Positions 12,001 through 21,000 of a stretch of 64,000 nucleotides of DNA are shown here, in pieces. The first letter of the stretch is position 1. Each line of letters starts with the position of its first letter. The position numbers are program-made. Source of the stretch: Escherichia coli. Its GTDB lineage: Bacteria > Pseudomonadota > Gammaproteobacteria > Enterobacterales > Enterobacteriaceae. Where the stretch lies: NCBI RefSeq assembly GCF_003334255.1, contig NZ_QOWU01000017.1; one strand, 5' to 3'.

Positions 12001-15000
12001 TGCTTTTGCAGTTTTCGACTATACCATCAAGAATGTGACGGTAAGCAAGAAAAAAATGACCCAGGAAAGCAAATTAATAACGAGAGTAATCTCATAACCA
12101 AATGCGATAACTCAGACGCTAAAGTTTTGCCACCCGGCTACCGTTATCAGTAGCAGAGACAATAACGTTAAGGAGTTCCCTGTGAGTCGAGCATTGTTCG
12201 CCGTAGTATTAGCATTTCCATTAATTGCACTGGCTAACCCGCATTATCGTCCGGACGTGGAGGTAAACGTACCGCCAGAAGTGTTCAGTTCAGGCGGGCA
12301 GTCAGCGCAGCCCTGTACTCAGTGCTGCGTTTATCAGGATCAAAATTATTCTGAAGGGGCGGTAATTAAAGCCGAAGGAATACTGCTGCAATGCCAGCGT
12401 GATGACAAAACCCTTAGCACTAATCCGCTGGTCTGGCGGCGCGTAAAGCCATAAACGCCTCTAATAATGGAATGTCAGCAGGGGCCAGCGGATATTGCAG
12501 CGCCTCTTCAGGTGAGCACCAGACCAGCGCCTGATGTTCATGTGCCTGTAACGTCCCGTGGAAGTCGGGTACGTGCCAGGCATGAAGATGGATAATCCGC
12601 CCCGAAACTTCTCGCTGATGGCTGGCAACATATTCACCCACAGTTGCTTCGATGCCCAGTTCTTCGCGTAACTCACGCACCAGCGCCTGCCGCTGACTTT
12701 CATCCGGCTCGACTTTACCACCGGCAAACTCCCATAATCCCGCCTGATCGCTCTGGGCGGGGCGTTGCGCGAGTAAAATTTTGCCATCACGTTCAATGAT
12801 GGCGGCAACAACTTCAATCATTTTCATAAATTACACACGGGCAGATAAGCGAAAAATGCCATAATATCCGCACTGTTGCTCAATCAGAAAGGCTTTATAT
12901 TTAAGGAGTGCCTGTGCTAGACCGCCATCTTCATCCCCGGATTAAACCGTTGTTGCATCAGTGCGTGCGGGTTCTTGATAAACCGGGCATTACGCCAGAT
13001 GGTTTAACATTAGTGGGATTTGCCATCGGCGTGCTGGCTCTGCCGTTTCTGGCGCTGGGCTGGTATCTGGCGGCGCTAGTCGTCATTTTGTTGAACAGGC
13101 TGCTTGATGGTCTGGACGGTGCGCTGGCGCGGCGCAGAGAGCTTACCGACGCGGGCGGCTTTCTTGATATTTCTCTCGATTTTCTCTTTTACGCGCTGGT
13201 GCCGTTTGGCTTTATTCTTGCTGCACCGGAGCAAAATGCGCTGGCAGGCGGCTGGTTGTTGTTTGCGTTTATCGGCACGGGCAGCAGTTTTCTCGCCTTT
13301 GCTGCACTGGCAGCAAAACATCAGATTGATAACCCCGGTTATGCACATAAGTCGTTTTACTATCTGGGGGGATTAACCGAAGGCACAGAAACGATCTTAC
13401 TGTTTGTGCTGGGATGTTTATTCCCTGCATGGTTTGCGTGGTTTGCGTGGATCTTCGGTGCGTTGTGCTGGATGACGACCTTTACGCGGGTGTGGAGTGG
13501 GTATCTGACGCTGAAGTCGCTCCAGCGTCAGTAATTGCAATGTTATTTGCTACTGTCCGGGCCGCGTTCACCGGTTGCTACCGGATTTTTTGGATCGCTG
13601 CTCCATTCGTACCAGCCGCCGTCATACACGGAAACATTCTTCCAACCCATGGCGCGTGCGTACATAAAGGTTTCGGACGCGCGCCAGCCGGTGCCGCAGT
13701 AGAATGAAACTTGCTGCTCTGGTTTGATATTCCACGCTTTCCACATAGCGGTAATATCATCGGCGCTGCGCATGGTGCCATCCGGGTTATGAAAATCTTC
13801 CATATGCGTCGAGTCGCTACCAGCGTGTCCCCAACGTGCGCCGGCTATTTCACCTTTTGGTTTAATATAGCTGTAACCGCTGGTCGTACCGATAAATTCT
13901 GGCCACGAACGAATGCTCACCAGCGATGCATCCTGGCGATGCAGCAGTCCACGGGCCTGTTCCATATCGAGCATCAACTGCGGTTGTGCCGGGATCTTCA
14001 CGCCGAAATCCGGTTCCGCTTTCACTTTCGGTGGCGTTCCGCGCTCAACAGGCAGTCCCGCGTCGGACCAGGTTTGCCAGCCGCCATCCAGCAGGCGCAC
14101 ATCTTTCACGCCAGCATAAAGCATAATCTGCGCCACACGCGCTGCAGCGTATACGTCACGCCCATACAGAATGACCGTGGTGTCATGGCGAATGCCGTGT
14201 TTTGCCAGCATCGCTTTTAGTTGTTCATCAGAAACTTTGTTCCACAGCGGTTCACTTTCCACTTCGTTGGTATCGATGTAGTCAGCGCCGGGAATATGGC
14301 TGATAAGGTAAAGCTTAGGAGCGCCCCAGGCCGCTTCAATGACTTTCCAGTCACCGGCAGGTTTCGCCGTAACCTCTTTACCTTGTTGCAGGTCGTGCAG
14401 CCATTGCGGATAAACCAGCTGCTCAAAATGCGGCAGTTTTTGCAGACGGGAAGGTTCGCTTAGCGCGTCACTCAGGATGGAGATATGCGTTAAACCTGCT
14501 TTTTGCAGTCGCGTTTTGACGGCGTCGACATCTTTGTCATTACCGTACAGCGCCACCGGAGCATCGGTTTTCAGGTTATGTTGCTTGATCCACGCGTTGA
14601 GCTGTTCGGTGCTCATTTTGTCAAGCCAGCTGGCAGAGAGGTTTAAGGCGGCAGGTTCATGACCAGAAGGGCCATTTAAGGTTTGTGGCCAGCCGTTATA
14701 AAACGCGCTGGGGCGAGTATCTATCGCTTTGCCATTTTGTTGTTGAAGCTGGTCAAGTGTAAGAGGCTTCGCCAGTTCAGCGGCCCACGAAGAAGCGCAA
14801 GCCAGCCCTAAAGCCATTGCCAGCGCGGTCATTTGAGAAACACGTTTCATCGAAAATCCCGACATTGTAGTTTTGAGTGCGCCATTCTGAACTGACGCAT
14901 TGAGAAAAACTTTGCGTTATCGCAGTTTGTTGTAATTTTCTGACCACTGCGCCATATCCAGAACAGAACTATCAGCAGGAACATCCTGGAGATCGTGCGT

Positions 15001-18000: not shown

Positions 18001-21000
18001 TCTGAATGCGCTTCACCGCGTCTGCGGCATCCGCCAGACGGACAATCTTCAGGTTTATAGCGTAATGGGTTTTCATCTCGCCGCTCACCCAGTCGAGATA
18101 GCGGTTAATTGCGGTATCGCCGCCCCAGGCGTTAAACCAGACGGTTTGCCCTTTGGCCTCATTTTTAATTTCTTGCCAGTCACTGGCATGTGTTGCCAGA
18201 GAAAACAGCGATAACAATCCCAGCAACCACCCACAATGGCGCATCATCTCTCCTTAAGAACGTTTTTCAGGAATACGGCACAGCCCCTGAGCGGGAATGT
18301 CCATGGCAGAATTAAAACGGGCTGACAGATTTTGCAGGCCGATCAATGCCGTCAGTTCGGTGAGCGCCTGAGCGTCAAAATGCGCAGCCAGTCGGGTACG
18401 CAGGGCATCATCGACCGTTGGCGGCGTTACGCTTGCGGCTTCGGCGTACTCCAGCGCCAGCCGTTCTTCATCGCTAAAGAGCGGGCTTTGCCGCCAGTCA
18501 GCCACTGCCAGCAGTTTATCGCTGCTGCCGGTGCGCTCGGCGACTTTCATACTGGTGATATCCACACAAAACTCACACAGGCACATTTGCGCAATGCGCG
18601 CGCTGACAAGCGATCGTACTACCGGATCGAGCGGTGAGCGTTTGCGCTCCAGCCAGCCAACAAACATCGACACCAGATAAAAGATAAACGGGATCCGCCC
18701 CCACCAGCGAATGGGGCTTAGCACCTCGCCGTAATGGCGACGATGCAGCCACGCCTGTGGACGTAAAATTAAAGGAATTTTGCTAAGCGGCGGTAAACCC
18801 ATCAGGCATTCCTCTTCTGGCGTTCAAGCCATATTTTCTTCGCCATAAAAATCACCACGGTCAGGGCAAACAGAATAAACAGTCCGGTGACAAACCAGAA
18901 AGTACCGCCTGTTAACATGCTGCCCGCCCAGGAATAAACAATAGTTGCCGGTAACTGACCAAGCCCGGTGGCGATAAAAAACGAGCGAAAACGTATTGAA
19001 GTCAAACCGGCAGCATAGCTGATTGGATCGAAAGGGACAAAAGGCAATAACCGACAGACCAGAATGGTGTGTTTGCCGTAGCGAGTGAAAAAGCCGTCCA
19101 TACTGTCAAGCACGGTTTTGCCGGTTAATTTTTCCACCACTTCGCGGCCCATCACTCTGGCGATAAAAAAGCACAGCGCCGCGCCGGCCATCGAACTGGT
19201 CCACGACAGCAAGCCGCCCCAGAACGCGCCAAACAGCGACGCATTGGCAAAGGTGATCAAAAACGCAGGTAGCGGTGCAGCAATGGCCTGCAAAATCATC
19301 AACAAGAACGAGACAACTGCCGCCAGTGCGCCGTAAGACTGAATAAAGCGTTCTATACCCTGTTGGTCCACGGCGGCAAACGCCGCAACGCTGCGATTGA
19401 TAAACTCATGGACGCCGGGAAGCAGCGCCCATGCCAGCAGCATAGCGAACAACAGGATGATGAGGGTTATACGGTAGTACCAGATTTTTCGCGATTGCAT
19501 CATCATCATCCTTTATCCTGGCTTTATTCGGCGATTTTAAAGGTAACCGTTGCCAGCGTGTTATCCGCCGGGAGAACTGAGGCATTGCCTTTGAATTTAA
19601 CTTCACCACGTTTTTCAACCGCACCATAAGTGTATGTTGCATTGCTGACGATGCCGACCGGGCAGCTATCCAGACACACCAGGCAACCCGTTTTCTTCTC
19701 TTCTGCTGCCGTTAAATTACCGCCAAAGCGCATGTCCAGTTTCTTGCCATTACTGTCAACAATCACTTCATCGAAGGAATACGCTTTTGCCGCCCCTTGC
19801 CAGTTGACCGAAATATCCAGTTTGCTGCCTGTGACATGAGTCGTTTCTTTATTATCCATCGTCATGTTTTCGCCCGGCGTACCACCTGCCTCTTTCAGGG
19901 CTTCATAAAATGCTTTCGGGGTCGCATAACCCATAAACAGCGATTTATGTCCGTTGGAGCCATCTTTAAACACAATACCGTGACGAGTGTCGTCGGTGAG
20001 GAAACGACCATTAATTTGCACCAGCATGGTTACCGTATGGTTATTGGCATCGACACGCAGCGGTTGGCTGTTCGAAAGTCCGTCGTATTCCACTTTTGCC
20101 GCCGCATTCTCTTGTTGATCGCAGCCGCTAAGCCCAGCAACAGCCAGTAAACAGAGTGCAGCCAGTCCTTTTTTCCATGACACTGAATAATGTTGCAACA
20201 TCGTTCTATCCTTCATTTTTTGGGTGAGTAAGTGGGCTGCGGCGCGAAGCAGACAGATCCACATGTTTGTGTCGGGCGTAGAGTTTTGCGAGCTGGACGA
20301 GAATAAACAGCGCCAGGCCCGCCAGACAGAGTTGTAAAATAAAGCGCAGCGTAATGCCTTCATTGGCGAGATCGCTTGCCATCACGGTATAAATAACAAT
20401 ACCGGGTAGGGTCGTGAGTGCCGAAATAAGGGTATAAGGCCAGAAGGCGATTGTGGTTAATCCGTAAGCGTAATTTTGAATATTGTAAGGAAACAACGGG
20501 ATTAAGCGGGTCAGAATAAGAAAATCAATACCGTTACGCGCAATGCCTTTTTCAATGGCCTGGAAGGTATTGCTATGGCCAACGTATTTCAGCAGTAAAT
20601 CACGTCCCAGCCAGCGCGCCAGCAGGAATGAGCACGAGGAGGCCAGCGTGGCGGCAATTAATGAGAGTAGTGTCCCTAAGAGCGGGCCAAAAACTATTCC
20701 TCCCGCGATCACCAGTATGCTTCCTGGTAACAGCAAGAGGGTGGCAATGATGAATAACAGAATATAGAGGCTATAGCCGAAAAATCCGCTCTGGCGGATG
20801 AGTGTCTGTAAGTGGGGTAAATCGGTGAGCAGATCGAATAAACCGAAAGCGTGGATAGCGTAAATGACCAGCGCAAAAATAAGACAGGCAAAAAGAAATT
20901 TACGCTCAGCGTTCATCGTGGAGTTTCCTATATCAAACTTGATAATAGAGAAGTGGTCAGACAACTAAAAACGCAGAGACGGTATAACAAAGGACGGCAG

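Follow-up and report, generated by a model that had tools for sequence, protein, structure and literature searches.

A 64,000-nucleotide stretch of Escherichia coli DNA (contig NZ_QOWU01000017.1 of RefSeq assembly GCF_003334255.1), which we call the window, carries the genes ydjX, ydjY, ydjZ, ynjA, ynjB, ynjC, ynjD and ynjE, and we describe here the make-up of this cluster and of its neighbour ynjF, their recurrence in other bacteria and their possible function. The RefSeq annotation from an identical E. coli strain was compared with our own list of open reading frames (ORFs) and the gene coordinates were concordant (Table 1). All eight minus-strand genes, with each junction and motif that an earlier note on this DNA had named, are present in the sequence and in RefSeq. 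Read from the sequence, the gaps are 4 nt between ydjX and ydjY, 14 nt between ydjY and ydjZ, 9 nt between ynjA and ynjB and 66 nt between ynjD and ynjE, while ydjZ and ynjA overlap by 1 nt (TGATG), ynjB and ynjC overlap by 28 nt, and the start of ynjD overlaps the stop of ynjC (TAATG). Start codons are putative here: ynjB has tandem ATG ATG, ynjC has an in-frame upstream TTG, and the mechanical ORFs of ynjD and ynjE (minus strand, 14917-15657 and 13543-14865) begin upstream of the annotated starts and have 246 and 440 aa against 217 and 435 aa in the annotation.

An 8.5-kb query around the cluster matches 5425 of 5426 complete E. coli genomes, with at least 80% query coverage in 5384; ydjX-ynjD and ynjE belong to the E. 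coli core genome and are under selection. Recent horizontal transfer finds no support in composition, the GC content (0.48-0.575 across the cluster) not being anomalous. On the plus strand ynjF is convergent with ynjE, their stop codons lying 8 nt apart, and as a conserved partner it is taken, from its gene contexts, to belong to the system, which thereby reaches beyond the interval considered before. A 9-bp inverted repeat, CTGACGCTG...CAGCGTCAG, lies within the last codons of ynjF. The next genes, ynjH and nudG, are also convergent and overlap at their 3' ends by about 35 nt, and ExcludonFinder lists both ynjE/ynjF and ynjH/nudG as transcriptional overlaps. It is nudG, encoding a CTP pyrophosphohydrolase, that adjoins the CDP-alcohol transferase gene ynjF.

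Table 1. Coordinates in the window of the cluster genes, linked genes and regulatory features
Feature	Position	Strand	Source or remark
ydjX	20206-20916	-	RefSeq and ORF list
ydjY	19524-20201	-	RefSeq and ORF list
ydjZ	18802-19509	-	RefSeq and ORF list
ynjA	18254-18802	-	RefSeq and ORF list
ynjB	17078-18244	-	RefSeq and ORF list
ynjC	15570-17105	-	RefSeq and ORF list
ynjD	14917-15570	-	RefSeq and ORF list
ynjE	13543-14850	-	RefSeq and ORF list
FNR box TTGAGAAAAATCAA	21026-21039		upstream of ydjX; 1 mismatch to TTGATNNNNATCAA
sigma-70-like promoter (predicted)	14864-14891	-	in the ynjD-ynjE gap; TTCAGA, 16-nt spacer, TACAAT; consensus scan
ynjF	12914-13534	+	RefSeq; CDP-alcohol phosphatidyltransferase; outside the interval of the earlier note
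nudG	12420-12827	-	
ynjH	12182-12454	+	
selD (selenophosphate synthetase)	6309-7352	+	RefSeq; linked gene, not an operon member

Transcription and protein families of the cluster

According to Myers et al. 2013, ydjXYZ-ynjABCD is one operon directly activated by FNR from a site at -60.5, and ynjE is a separate unit, also directly FNR-activated, with its site at -41.5. The 66-nt gap before ynjE contains no FNR consensus with two or fewer mismatches, and the published site, based on chromatin immunoprecipitation, was not recovered by motif alone. No minus-strand terminator was seen in this gap, and read-through into ynjE is therefore possible. The earlier note had treated all of these genes, ynjE included, as one coupled cluster: seven of them, ydjXYZ-ynjABCD, do behave as one FNR-activated unit, but the eight do not form a single operon, since ynjE is co-regulated from its own FNR-dependent promoter, outside the seven-gene transcript (Myers et al. 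2013 and the promoter-like site in the gap). A terminator scan of 13300-21300 returned 22 terminator-like sites where shuffled sequences gave an expectation of 10.5, nearly all of them inside coding sequence and none separating minus-strand genes, which is probably a composition effect. For a riboswitch or leader that could name a ligand, positions 12000-22500 of the window gave no Rfam match at E <=0.1, and the scan of eight related loci gave nothing relevant, only a T-box and a 6S RNA.

The published expression data place the cluster among anaerobically expressed genes. Sastry et al. 2021 described an uncharacterised iModulon made up of exactly ydjXYZ-ynjABCD, yedEF, yjiLM and ynjE, whose activity is higher without oxygen and reduced in fnr and arcA mutants, and proposed that it is linked to 'molybdenum and selenium usage'. 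In the YgfI study, ynjE and ydjY group with hyc, hyb, dms and frd genes, and yjiL groups there too. Overexpression of BaeR induces the genes mildly (1.6-fold for ynjA, 1.4-fold for ynjB), ynjABCD being handled as a unit in that work. The yjiLM genes, outside the window, are annotated as the ATPase activator (yjiL) and a subunit (yjiM) of a 2-hydroxyglutaryl-CoA-dehydratase-like enzyme, and could supply a low-potential reductase for the same pathway as the cluster.

YdjX and YdjZ are members of the DedA/VTT family: RefSeq names both TVP38/TMEM64 family protein and their Raoultella orthologues (locus L091) carry PF09335. In the classification of PMC10127716 (2023), YdjZ is the structural representative of COG0398, a group that lacks the acidic and basic re-entrant-loop residues of the undecaprenyl-phosphate flippases, is argued not to flip undecaprenyl phosphate and is proposed to consist of phospholipid scramblases; the domains most often fused to its members are pyridine-nucleotide-disulfide oxidoreductases like that in mercuric reductase. 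That YdjX and YdjZ are undecaprenyl-phosphate flippases is unlikely, given this lack of residues and UptA matches far below the cutoff. YdjX is the less conserved of the two paralogues and has no conserved cysteine, and YdjX-like partners occur in many loci. YdjZ orthologues score 200-280 bits beside YdjY, and Cys113 of YdjZ is invariant in 20 of 20 lineages.

The translation of ydjY has a lipobox, LSGC27, followed by Asp28, and the motif GCLVCLDSCP (CxxCxxxCP), whose cysteines C173, C176 and C180 are invariant in the family alignment. Under the +2 rule for lipoproteins, Asp at position +2 keeps a lipoprotein in the inner membrane, and YdjY is therefore predicted to be retained there, next to the DedA proteins. 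It matches NF040466 at 146 bits, against a cutoff of 50, has a precomputed PF27149 assignment and shares the invariant block TGCxxCxDSC...YTxGAxExR; its predicted structure is confident and the fold search returned no solved relative. The UniProt label of 4Fe-4S ferredoxin was rejected for this protein: it has three cysteines and not the four of CxxCxxCxxxCP, its Pfam Fer4 matches (E = 0.09-0.25) are not significant, PDB ferredoxin-like subunits appear at E 0.3 or worse, its lipoprotein signal is of the Sec type without a twin arginine, and its fold has no ferredoxin match.

YnjA belongs to the AhpD/CMD family (PDB CMD/AhpD relatives at E = 3e-9 to 2e-5; PF02627 on 99%-identical clusters) and is predicted to be a thiol oxidoreductase. 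In its motif CLCEFC, C76 and C79 are invariant, as is the C-terminal C175, whereas C74 is not conserved, and its best NCBIfam match, below cutoff, is a YciW-related (seleno)protein model (6e-29). YnjBCD has the parts of a binding-protein-dependent ATP-binding cassette (ABC) importer: YnjB is a class-D binding protein with a signal peptide, SBP_bac_8 and a PRK11622 match at 560 bits, YnjC is a fused double-domain permease with partial NCBIfam permease matches in both halves and PF00528 on an orthologue, and YnjD is an ABC ATPase with GPSGCGKS and LLLDEPF that many ABC ATPase models match. The profile and fold relatives of YnjB bind 2-aminoethylphosphonate, polyamines, ferric iron, sugar phosphates, metal-citrate or thiamin, at 11-18% identity, and among the top 50 profile and fold matches there are no sulfate or molybdate binders, so YnjB appears not to fall in the oxyanion-binder class. 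The residues of YnjB that are invariant in the family alignment are aromatic and acidic, with no conserved cysteine; a bare sulfur or selenium oxyanion is therefore not an obvious ligand.

YnjE is a three-domain rhodanese with an N-terminal signal peptide and the active-site loop CGTGWR (YCGTGWR in the translation). Published assays found it to be periplasmic, with poor activity on thiosulfate and 3-mercaptopyruvate and no apparent thiosulfate:glutathione activity, and called its physiological substrate unclear; PspE accounts for the conversion of thiosulfate to sulfane sulfur, and a role of YnjE as a true thiosulfate sulfurtransferase is unsupported by the published kinetics. YnjF is a CDP-alcohol phosphatidyltransferase by its motif DGx2ARx7Gx3Dx3D (DGALARRRELTDAGGFLDISLD in the translation) and by PF01066 on its orthologues; its best NCBIfam matches, below cutoff, are inositol-phosphate-type synthases. 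Profiles, PDB relatives and motifs thus bear out the families named in the earlier note, namely two DedA proteins, a CxxCxxxCP lipoprotein, an AhpD-like protein, an ABC importer and a signal-peptide-bearing rhodanese. A literature search on ydjY, ynjB and the other gene names of the cluster found no functional study assigning a role or a substrate, in agreement with the statement made there that the substrate was not established.

Recurrence of the system across phyla

In a scan of one genome per species over 100,000 species, YdjY occurred in about 98: in Escherichia, one Citrobacter, Gemella, Finegoldia, Peptostreptococcus, Facklamia, Catonella, Clostridium and Bacillus benzoevorans, and also in Campylobacter concisus, Sulfurospirillum and syntrophic and Desulfarculus-type Deltaproteobacteria. 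For 83 loci, six-frame ORFs were labelled by phmmer and all ORFs within 6 kb were in addition clustered independently of E. coli; the loci were grouped into 34 lineages at 75% YdjY identity and partners were counted within 10 kb. The assignments of SelD, YedF, ArsS, TIGR04282, TIGR04283, the flippase-like protein, the C-GCAxxG-C-C protein, SelB and SelA are above curated NCBIfam cutoffs. DedA proteins are present in 31 of the 34 lineages, and a previously unnamed four-helix membrane protein of about 130-150 aa, here called TM4, in 25. Less frequent are a Fer4/CCG reductase (15), the transferases TIGR04283 (10) and TIGR04282 (9), an ArsS-type radical SAM (seleno)protein (8), YedF, a YnjE-like rhodanese and a YnjB-type ABC system (7 each), the flippase-like protein TIGR00374 (6), SelD, a C-GCAxxG-C-C (seleno)protein and a YnjF-like phosphotransferase (5 each) and a small secreted rhodanese (4). 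TM4 stands free beside YdjY (L002 10649-11029, L005 10666-11130, L082 9503-9901) or is fused to the N-terminus of a long YdjZ (N-terminal ~165 aa of L016 10694-11878), carries the motif VWLEMR(V/I)H, matches nothing in NCBIfam and is absent from the Escherichia and Catonella loci.

The same gene set recurs in tight operons of distant phyla, which sustains the idea of a coherent envelope system put forward in the earlier note; Firmicutes, Campylobacterota and Deltaproteobacteria all have related sets. In L053 and L061 the order is YdjY, TM4, YdjX, YdjZ, CCG, YnjF, YnjB, YnjC, YnjD, which is the E. coli arrangement with CCG at the operon position of YnjA, and the two proteins are, judged from gene order, positionally equivalent. 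YnjA-like proteins occur only in enterobacterial loci and CCG holds the position elsewhere, so that YnjA was rejected as part of a cross-phylum core; the best NCBIfam match of the CCG proteins is 'diclust_near_Sec', far below its cutoff. Homologues of YnjF, embedded in related operons of Firmicutes, were seen in those of L031, L036, L053, L059, L061, L094, L096 and L097. In Campylobacter concisus the order is YdjY, TM4, TIGR04282, YdjZ, YdjX, TIGR04283, CCG, ArsS; in L029 it is a CCG-DedA fusion, YdjY and SelD, and in L088 SelD, YedF and YdjY. Fusions tie the families together further: P0390 and P0466 join the YdjY domain to a rhodanese, as P0393 does weakly, and AFDB entries that bear the name rhodanese or sulfurtransferase contain such a fusion as well; the partner of YdjY is a DedA domain in P0432 and an OlsE-like lipid hydroxylase in P0483. 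An apparent DedA-YdjY fusion in P0362 was not counted as evidence; its DedA part aligns like E. coli YdjX, and the joining may therefore be an artefact, produced by read-through or a frameshift between neighbouring ydjX and ydjY genes. One Finegoldia locus (L004 1-2713), the only one seen with arsenic-resistance genes nearby, has ArsA-like, Acr3/SBF-like and low-molecular-weight phosphatase (ArsC-like) genes 7-10 kb upstream of YdjY.

Versions of the system without YdjY also exist. Raoultella and Klebsiella have a syntenic ydjX-ydjZ-ynjA-ynjBCD-ynjE-ynjF cluster between xthA and gdhA (L091 7669-9001 in Raoultella), without ydjY and with the two DedA genes overlapping directly; ydjY was either gained in Escherichia or lost in Klebsiella. 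In Edwardsiella, ynjA overlaps ynjF, the two being translationally coupled, beside a YnjE-type rhodanese and one DedA, without the ABC system. More than 3,300 proteins, most of them from Clostridia, make up the YnjB family, and the five contexts sampled outside YdjY loci were all of two types. The first is VTT-(rhodanese)-VTT-CCG-YnjF-YnjBCD; the second is Sulf_transp-TusA-Sulf_transp-YnjBCD-TIGR04283-TIGR04282-kinase, with genes for a nucleoside hydrolase and a disulfide-oxidoreductase/CCG protein on its flanks. The halves of the split membrane protein in the second type score 107 and 115 bits against the YedE/FdhT model and 68 and 58 against TsuA, their best NCBIfam match being 'selenium metabolism membrane protein YedE/FdhT', with each half below the whole-protein cutoff. 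From these two contexts we infer that the DedA pair and YedE/TusA are interchangeable partners of the YnjBCD-type transporter.

Selenium and competing readings of the function

Genes of selenium metabolism recur beside YdjY. SelD (361 bits) and YedF (129 bits) adjoin it at scores above the NCBIfam cutoffs, and in L029, L087 and L088 one or both belong to the operon of YdjY or adjoin it, while the DNA examined at these loci contains neither SelA nor SelB. In Facklamia the module stands in one co-directional array with tRNA-Sec, SelD, YedF, SelB and SelA (Facklamia languida L082 2209-17428; also L083, L085 and L089), an apparently self-contained selenium-trait island in a relative of the lactic acid bacteria, which also holds CcdA/DsbD-like, ResA-like and nucleoside-hydrolase-like genes and three conserved unknown ORFs of 151, 132 and 169 aa. 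Both the SelD of Facklamia (CGG-U-NAKIG) and a PrdB-like ORF there (SPG-U-YICH) have an in-frame TGA; the one in SelD aligns with the catalytic cysteine of E. coli SelD. By our own rough estimate (20-kb window around YdjY, genome of ~3 Mb), SelD would be expected by chance near YdjY in about 0.2 of the 34 lineages, where 5 were observed. In the E. coli window itself selD lies 6.2 kb from the stop of ynjE, with topB, ynjI, gdhA, ynjH, nudG and ynjF between them, and we roughly estimate that, if genes were placed by chance in a genome of 4.8 Mb, any one of them would come as near to the cluster in ~0.3% of cases.

A precedent is found in Campylobacter jejuni, where formate dehydrogenase activity at low-nanomolar selenite depends on the DedA protein SelF (Cj1168c), which acts additively with FdhT, a YedE homologue; the authors of that study cite an earlier link between DedA and selenite in C. 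metallidurans. Lin et al. 2015 associated YedE and YedF with organisms that use selenium, DedA, YdjY and YnjB going unmentioned, and according to a May 2026 review prokaryotes have no known transporter that takes up selenium specifically and with high affinity. The earlier note had suggested a pathway for a sulfur- or selenium-containing solute, and this is only partly upheld: the SelD, YedF and YedE neighbourhoods, the co-expression with yedEF and the C. jejuni precedent argue for it, but the relatives of YnjB are not oxyanion binders.

We hypothesise that the cluster, ynjE and ynjF form an FNR-induced envelope relay by which a chalcogen is taken up and handed on to SelD, a reading that we favour tentatively, at a probability a little under even; selenium is the likeliest element, and sulfur the second choice. 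Its observed basis is gene order, translational coupling, conserved residues, cross-phylum synteny and domain fusions, to which the literature adds FNR control and yedEF co-expression; the chemistry and the direction of transport are our proposal. In the periplasm, YnjE and the inner-membrane-anchored YdjY, with C173, C176 and C180, would bind the element on cysteine thiols, as a perselenide or selenotrisulfide, and the DedA pair, YdjZ with its invariant membrane Cys113, would carry it across the inner membrane. At the cytoplasmic face the thiol reductase YnjA, with its CxxC and C175, would release selenide in E. coli, a role that in strict anaerobes might fall to the Fer4/CCG protein of heterodisulfide-reductase type. 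YnjBCD could import an organic co-substrate or carrier precursor that YnjF, as a CDP-alcohol phosphotransferase, would conjugate. The main user in E. coli would be SelD, for the selenocysteine-containing formate dehydrogenases.

Several points weigh against this hypothesis. Experimental work is limited to YnjE, whose published role, as in its product name, is sulfur transfer in molybdopterin synthesis. SelD or YedF is adjacent in only 5 to 7 of the 34 lineages, four of those deltaproteobacterial, and most YdjY loci, among them those of Gemella, Finegoldia and Peptostreptococcus, have no sel gene within 10 kb. The link to sel genes could moreover be indirect, because some arrays encode selenoproteins that attract them (the TGA-bearing PrdB-like ORF and SelD; the ArsS family). 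YdjY is rejected as an obligatory component, given the Raoultella/Klebsiella cluster that lacks it, and YnjB, by its relatives and its residues, appears unlike an oxyanion binder. Plain uptake leaves YnjF, the flippase-like protein, TIGR04282/04283, the kinase and ArsS unexplained, and these point to lipid or sugar chemistry. Finally, PMC10127716 places the DedA proteins of colistin resistance 'and others' (citing the C. metallidurans selenite paper) under COG0586 and YdjX/YdjZ under COG0398; the latter two may thus be in a different DedA subfamily from the selenite-linked proteins.

That the relay moves sulfur itself, shuttling sulfane sulfur in the form of persulfide or polysulfide between the periplasm and the cytoplasm of anaerobic cells with YnjE, YdjY and YnjA as persulfide carriers, we regard as unlikely, and we give similarly little weight to the purposes it would have, molybdenum-cofactor or Fe-S biogenesis or sulfide detoxification. 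YnjE is annotated as a molybdopterin synthase sulfurtransferase, yet it is poor or inactive with thiosulfate, 3-mercaptopyruvate and thiosulfate:glutathione, and it is PspE that makes sulfane sulfur from thiosulfate. Rhodaneses, TusA-like proteins, the YedE/YeeE family and CCG reductases are established sulfur-trafficking families, but the specific neighbours SelD, SelA, SelB and tRNA-Sec have no sulfur role, and the split membrane partner scores higher for YedE/FdhT than for TsuA. The iModulon authors (Sastry et al. 2021) do name molybdoenzymes besides selenium, and FNR co-regulates the cluster with molybdoenzyme operons; the rarity of YdjY (~98 of 100,000 species) nevertheless suits a trace-element trait better than general sulfur metabolism.

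Another doubtful possibility is that the system serves a membrane lipid or an organometalloid head group, YnjBCD importing an alcohol or onium-type compound (possibly an arseno- or seleno-sugar, or choline-like) that YnjF attaches to a phospholipid. It is as doubtful that in other taxa the kinase and TIGR04282/TIGR04283 attach the head group after ArsS radical-SAM chemistry, and the chances are likewise low that the lipid reaches the outer leaflet through the DedA pair and the flippase-like protein and is modified there by YdjY and the rhodanese. YnjF is conserved in the system and often overlaps its neighbours, COG0398 DedA proteins are the proposed phospholipid scramblases (PMC10127716), and the invariant aromatic and acidic residues of YnjB suit a cationic or polar organic ligand; on the other side, E. 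coli is without ArsS, both transferases and the kinase, and the literature search found no unusual E. coli phospholipid tied to the cluster genes. Lipid or sugar-type genes are frequent around YdjY (TIGR00374 in 6, TIGR04282/04283 in 9 to 10 and ArsS in 8 lineages), are interleaved with YdjY, YdjZ and YdjX in the single operon of Campylobacter concisus, and are joined by the OlsE-like hydroxylase fusion and by a nucleoside-hydrolase-like gene in or beside several arrays. However, the commonest core (YdjY, DedA and a thiol or Fe-S reductase) holds no lipid-synthesis enzyme, and the rhodanese, CCG, YnjA, CcdA/ResA, SelD and YedF partners are not explained by a lipid model alone.

The two kinds of chemistry could also be combined in a lipid carrier for the chalcogen, which we consider improbable. 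YnjF would make a rare phospholipid with a thiol or other selenium-accepting head group, imported by YnjBCD or, in other taxa, built by ArsS, TIGR04282/04283 and the kinase. The DedA pair, as proposed scramblases, would flip this lipid between the leaflets; at the outer face the rhodanese and the Cys3 lipoprotein YdjY would load it with selenium or sulfur, and at the inner face YnjA or the CCG reductase would unload it, feeding SelD. It would be the analogue of undecaprenyl phosphate, a flipped lipid that moves a trace element as undecaprenyl phosphate moves sugars.

Least probable of all is detoxification or efflux of a thiophilic metalloid (arsenite, antimonite, tellurite or excess selenite) with YdjY as a three-cysteine metalloid trap: three-cysteine sites typically bind As(III) and Sb(III), the ArsS cassette takes its name from the synthesis of arsenosugars, ArsA, Acr3-like and ArsC-like genes lie ~8 kb away in one Finegoldia locus, BaeR overexpression induces the genes mildly and the first DedA-selenite link concerned selenite resistance, but expression tracks FNR and anaerobiosis and not a metalloid sensor, the E. 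coli cluster contains no ArsR- or MerR-type regulator, YnjBCD is of the binding-protein-dependent ABC type, that is, an importer, and the SelD, YedF and Sec-machinery neighbours indicate use rather than removal.

Returning to the chalcogen relay, the operon, its FNR control and a tentative selenium/molybdenum link (2021) were already published. What is new is that the system is defined across phyla and takes in ynjF, that TM4 is a partner family, that CCG and YnjA are equivalent and that YedE/TusA can stand in for the DedA pair; the YdjY-rhodanese fusions and the direct SelD, YedF and Sec-machinery neighbourhoods, including selD in the window, are new as well. For the route by which bacteria take up nanomolar selenium for their selenoproteins, ydjXYZ-ynjABCD, ynjE and ynjF with yedEF make a defined, dispensable and genetically tractable candidate set, in the species where selenocysteine biology was worked out, E. 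coli. If the relay is real, eight or nine y-genes would gain a function, YnjE would gain a physiological substrate and COG0398, as a branch of the DedA superfamily, a role; the fold of YdjY and TM4 would become new components of trace-element handling, and the presence of an 'arsenosugar' cassette in gut and oral anaerobes unlikely to make arsenosugars might be explained. Should the lipid reading be true instead, it would point to an undescribed anaerobic phospholipid, and a lipid-carrier shuttle would mean trace-element import by a flipped lipid and the first physiological substrate for COG0398 DedA proteins.

Comparison with known systems

A close parallel is SelF with FdhT/FdhU of C. jejuni, which we liken to the E. 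coli cluster by description only: it pairs a DedA protein with a YedE/YedF pair, as the E. coli cluster does with yedEF, and it serves the selenium supply to a selenocysteine-containing formate dehydrogenase under selenium limitation. The parallel extends to the co-expression of the E. coli cluster with yedEF under FNR and to the Clostridia, where the YnjB transporter pairs with either the DedA pair or YedE/TusA. SelF is described as a single DedA gene, however, whereas the E. coli cluster has two DedA paralogues together with a Cys3 lipoprotein, a thiol reductase, an ABC importer, a rhodanese and a phosphotransferase. In the thiosulfate-uptake system YeeE/YeeD (TsuA/TsuB) and the selenium-associated pair YedE/YedF, a membrane protein and a TusA-like or rhodanese-type carrier together hand on a chalcogen bound to cysteine, and such systems are genomically interchangeable with the DedA pair beside YnjBCD. 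They differ in having the Sulf_transp fold where the E. coli cluster has DedA, and the yedEF genes of E. coli lie at a separate locus.

The ArsS/TIGR04282/TIGR04283 'arsenosugar biosynthesis' cassette, formerly known as a radical SAM/selenodomain-associated set, has its members, all above NCBIfam cutoffs, interspersed among YdjY, YdjZ and YdjX in loci of Campylobacter concisus, Facklamia, Catonella and Deltaproteobacteria; E. coli lacks the cassette and carries in its stead the import module YnjBCD with YnjF. The CCG disulfide reductases of the HdrD/DsrK type, the Fer4/CCG class of 15 of the 34 lineages, are in Deltaproteobacteria fused to a DedA domain, and their operon position is taken in E. 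coli by YnjA, which is AhpD-like and not an Fe-S protein. A protein trisulfide is the substrate that DsrK reduces, and by analogy the corresponding substrate in the YdjY system would be a selenotrisulfide.

The Mer relay (MerP, MerT and MerA) follows the same logic of an extracytoplasmic cysteine binder, a membrane conduit and a cytoplasmic thiol/disulfide reductase, and a Mer-like trait is seen in the fusion of COG0398 DedA proteins to oxidoreductase domains of the mercuric-reductase kind (PMC10127716) and, in YdjY loci, to Fer4/CCG. The likeness is one of working mode and not of family membership: there is no homology, no Mer family is matched by any protein of the cluster, YdjY has a different fold, and the purpose of the cluster appears to be acquisition, whereas that of Mer is volatilisation.

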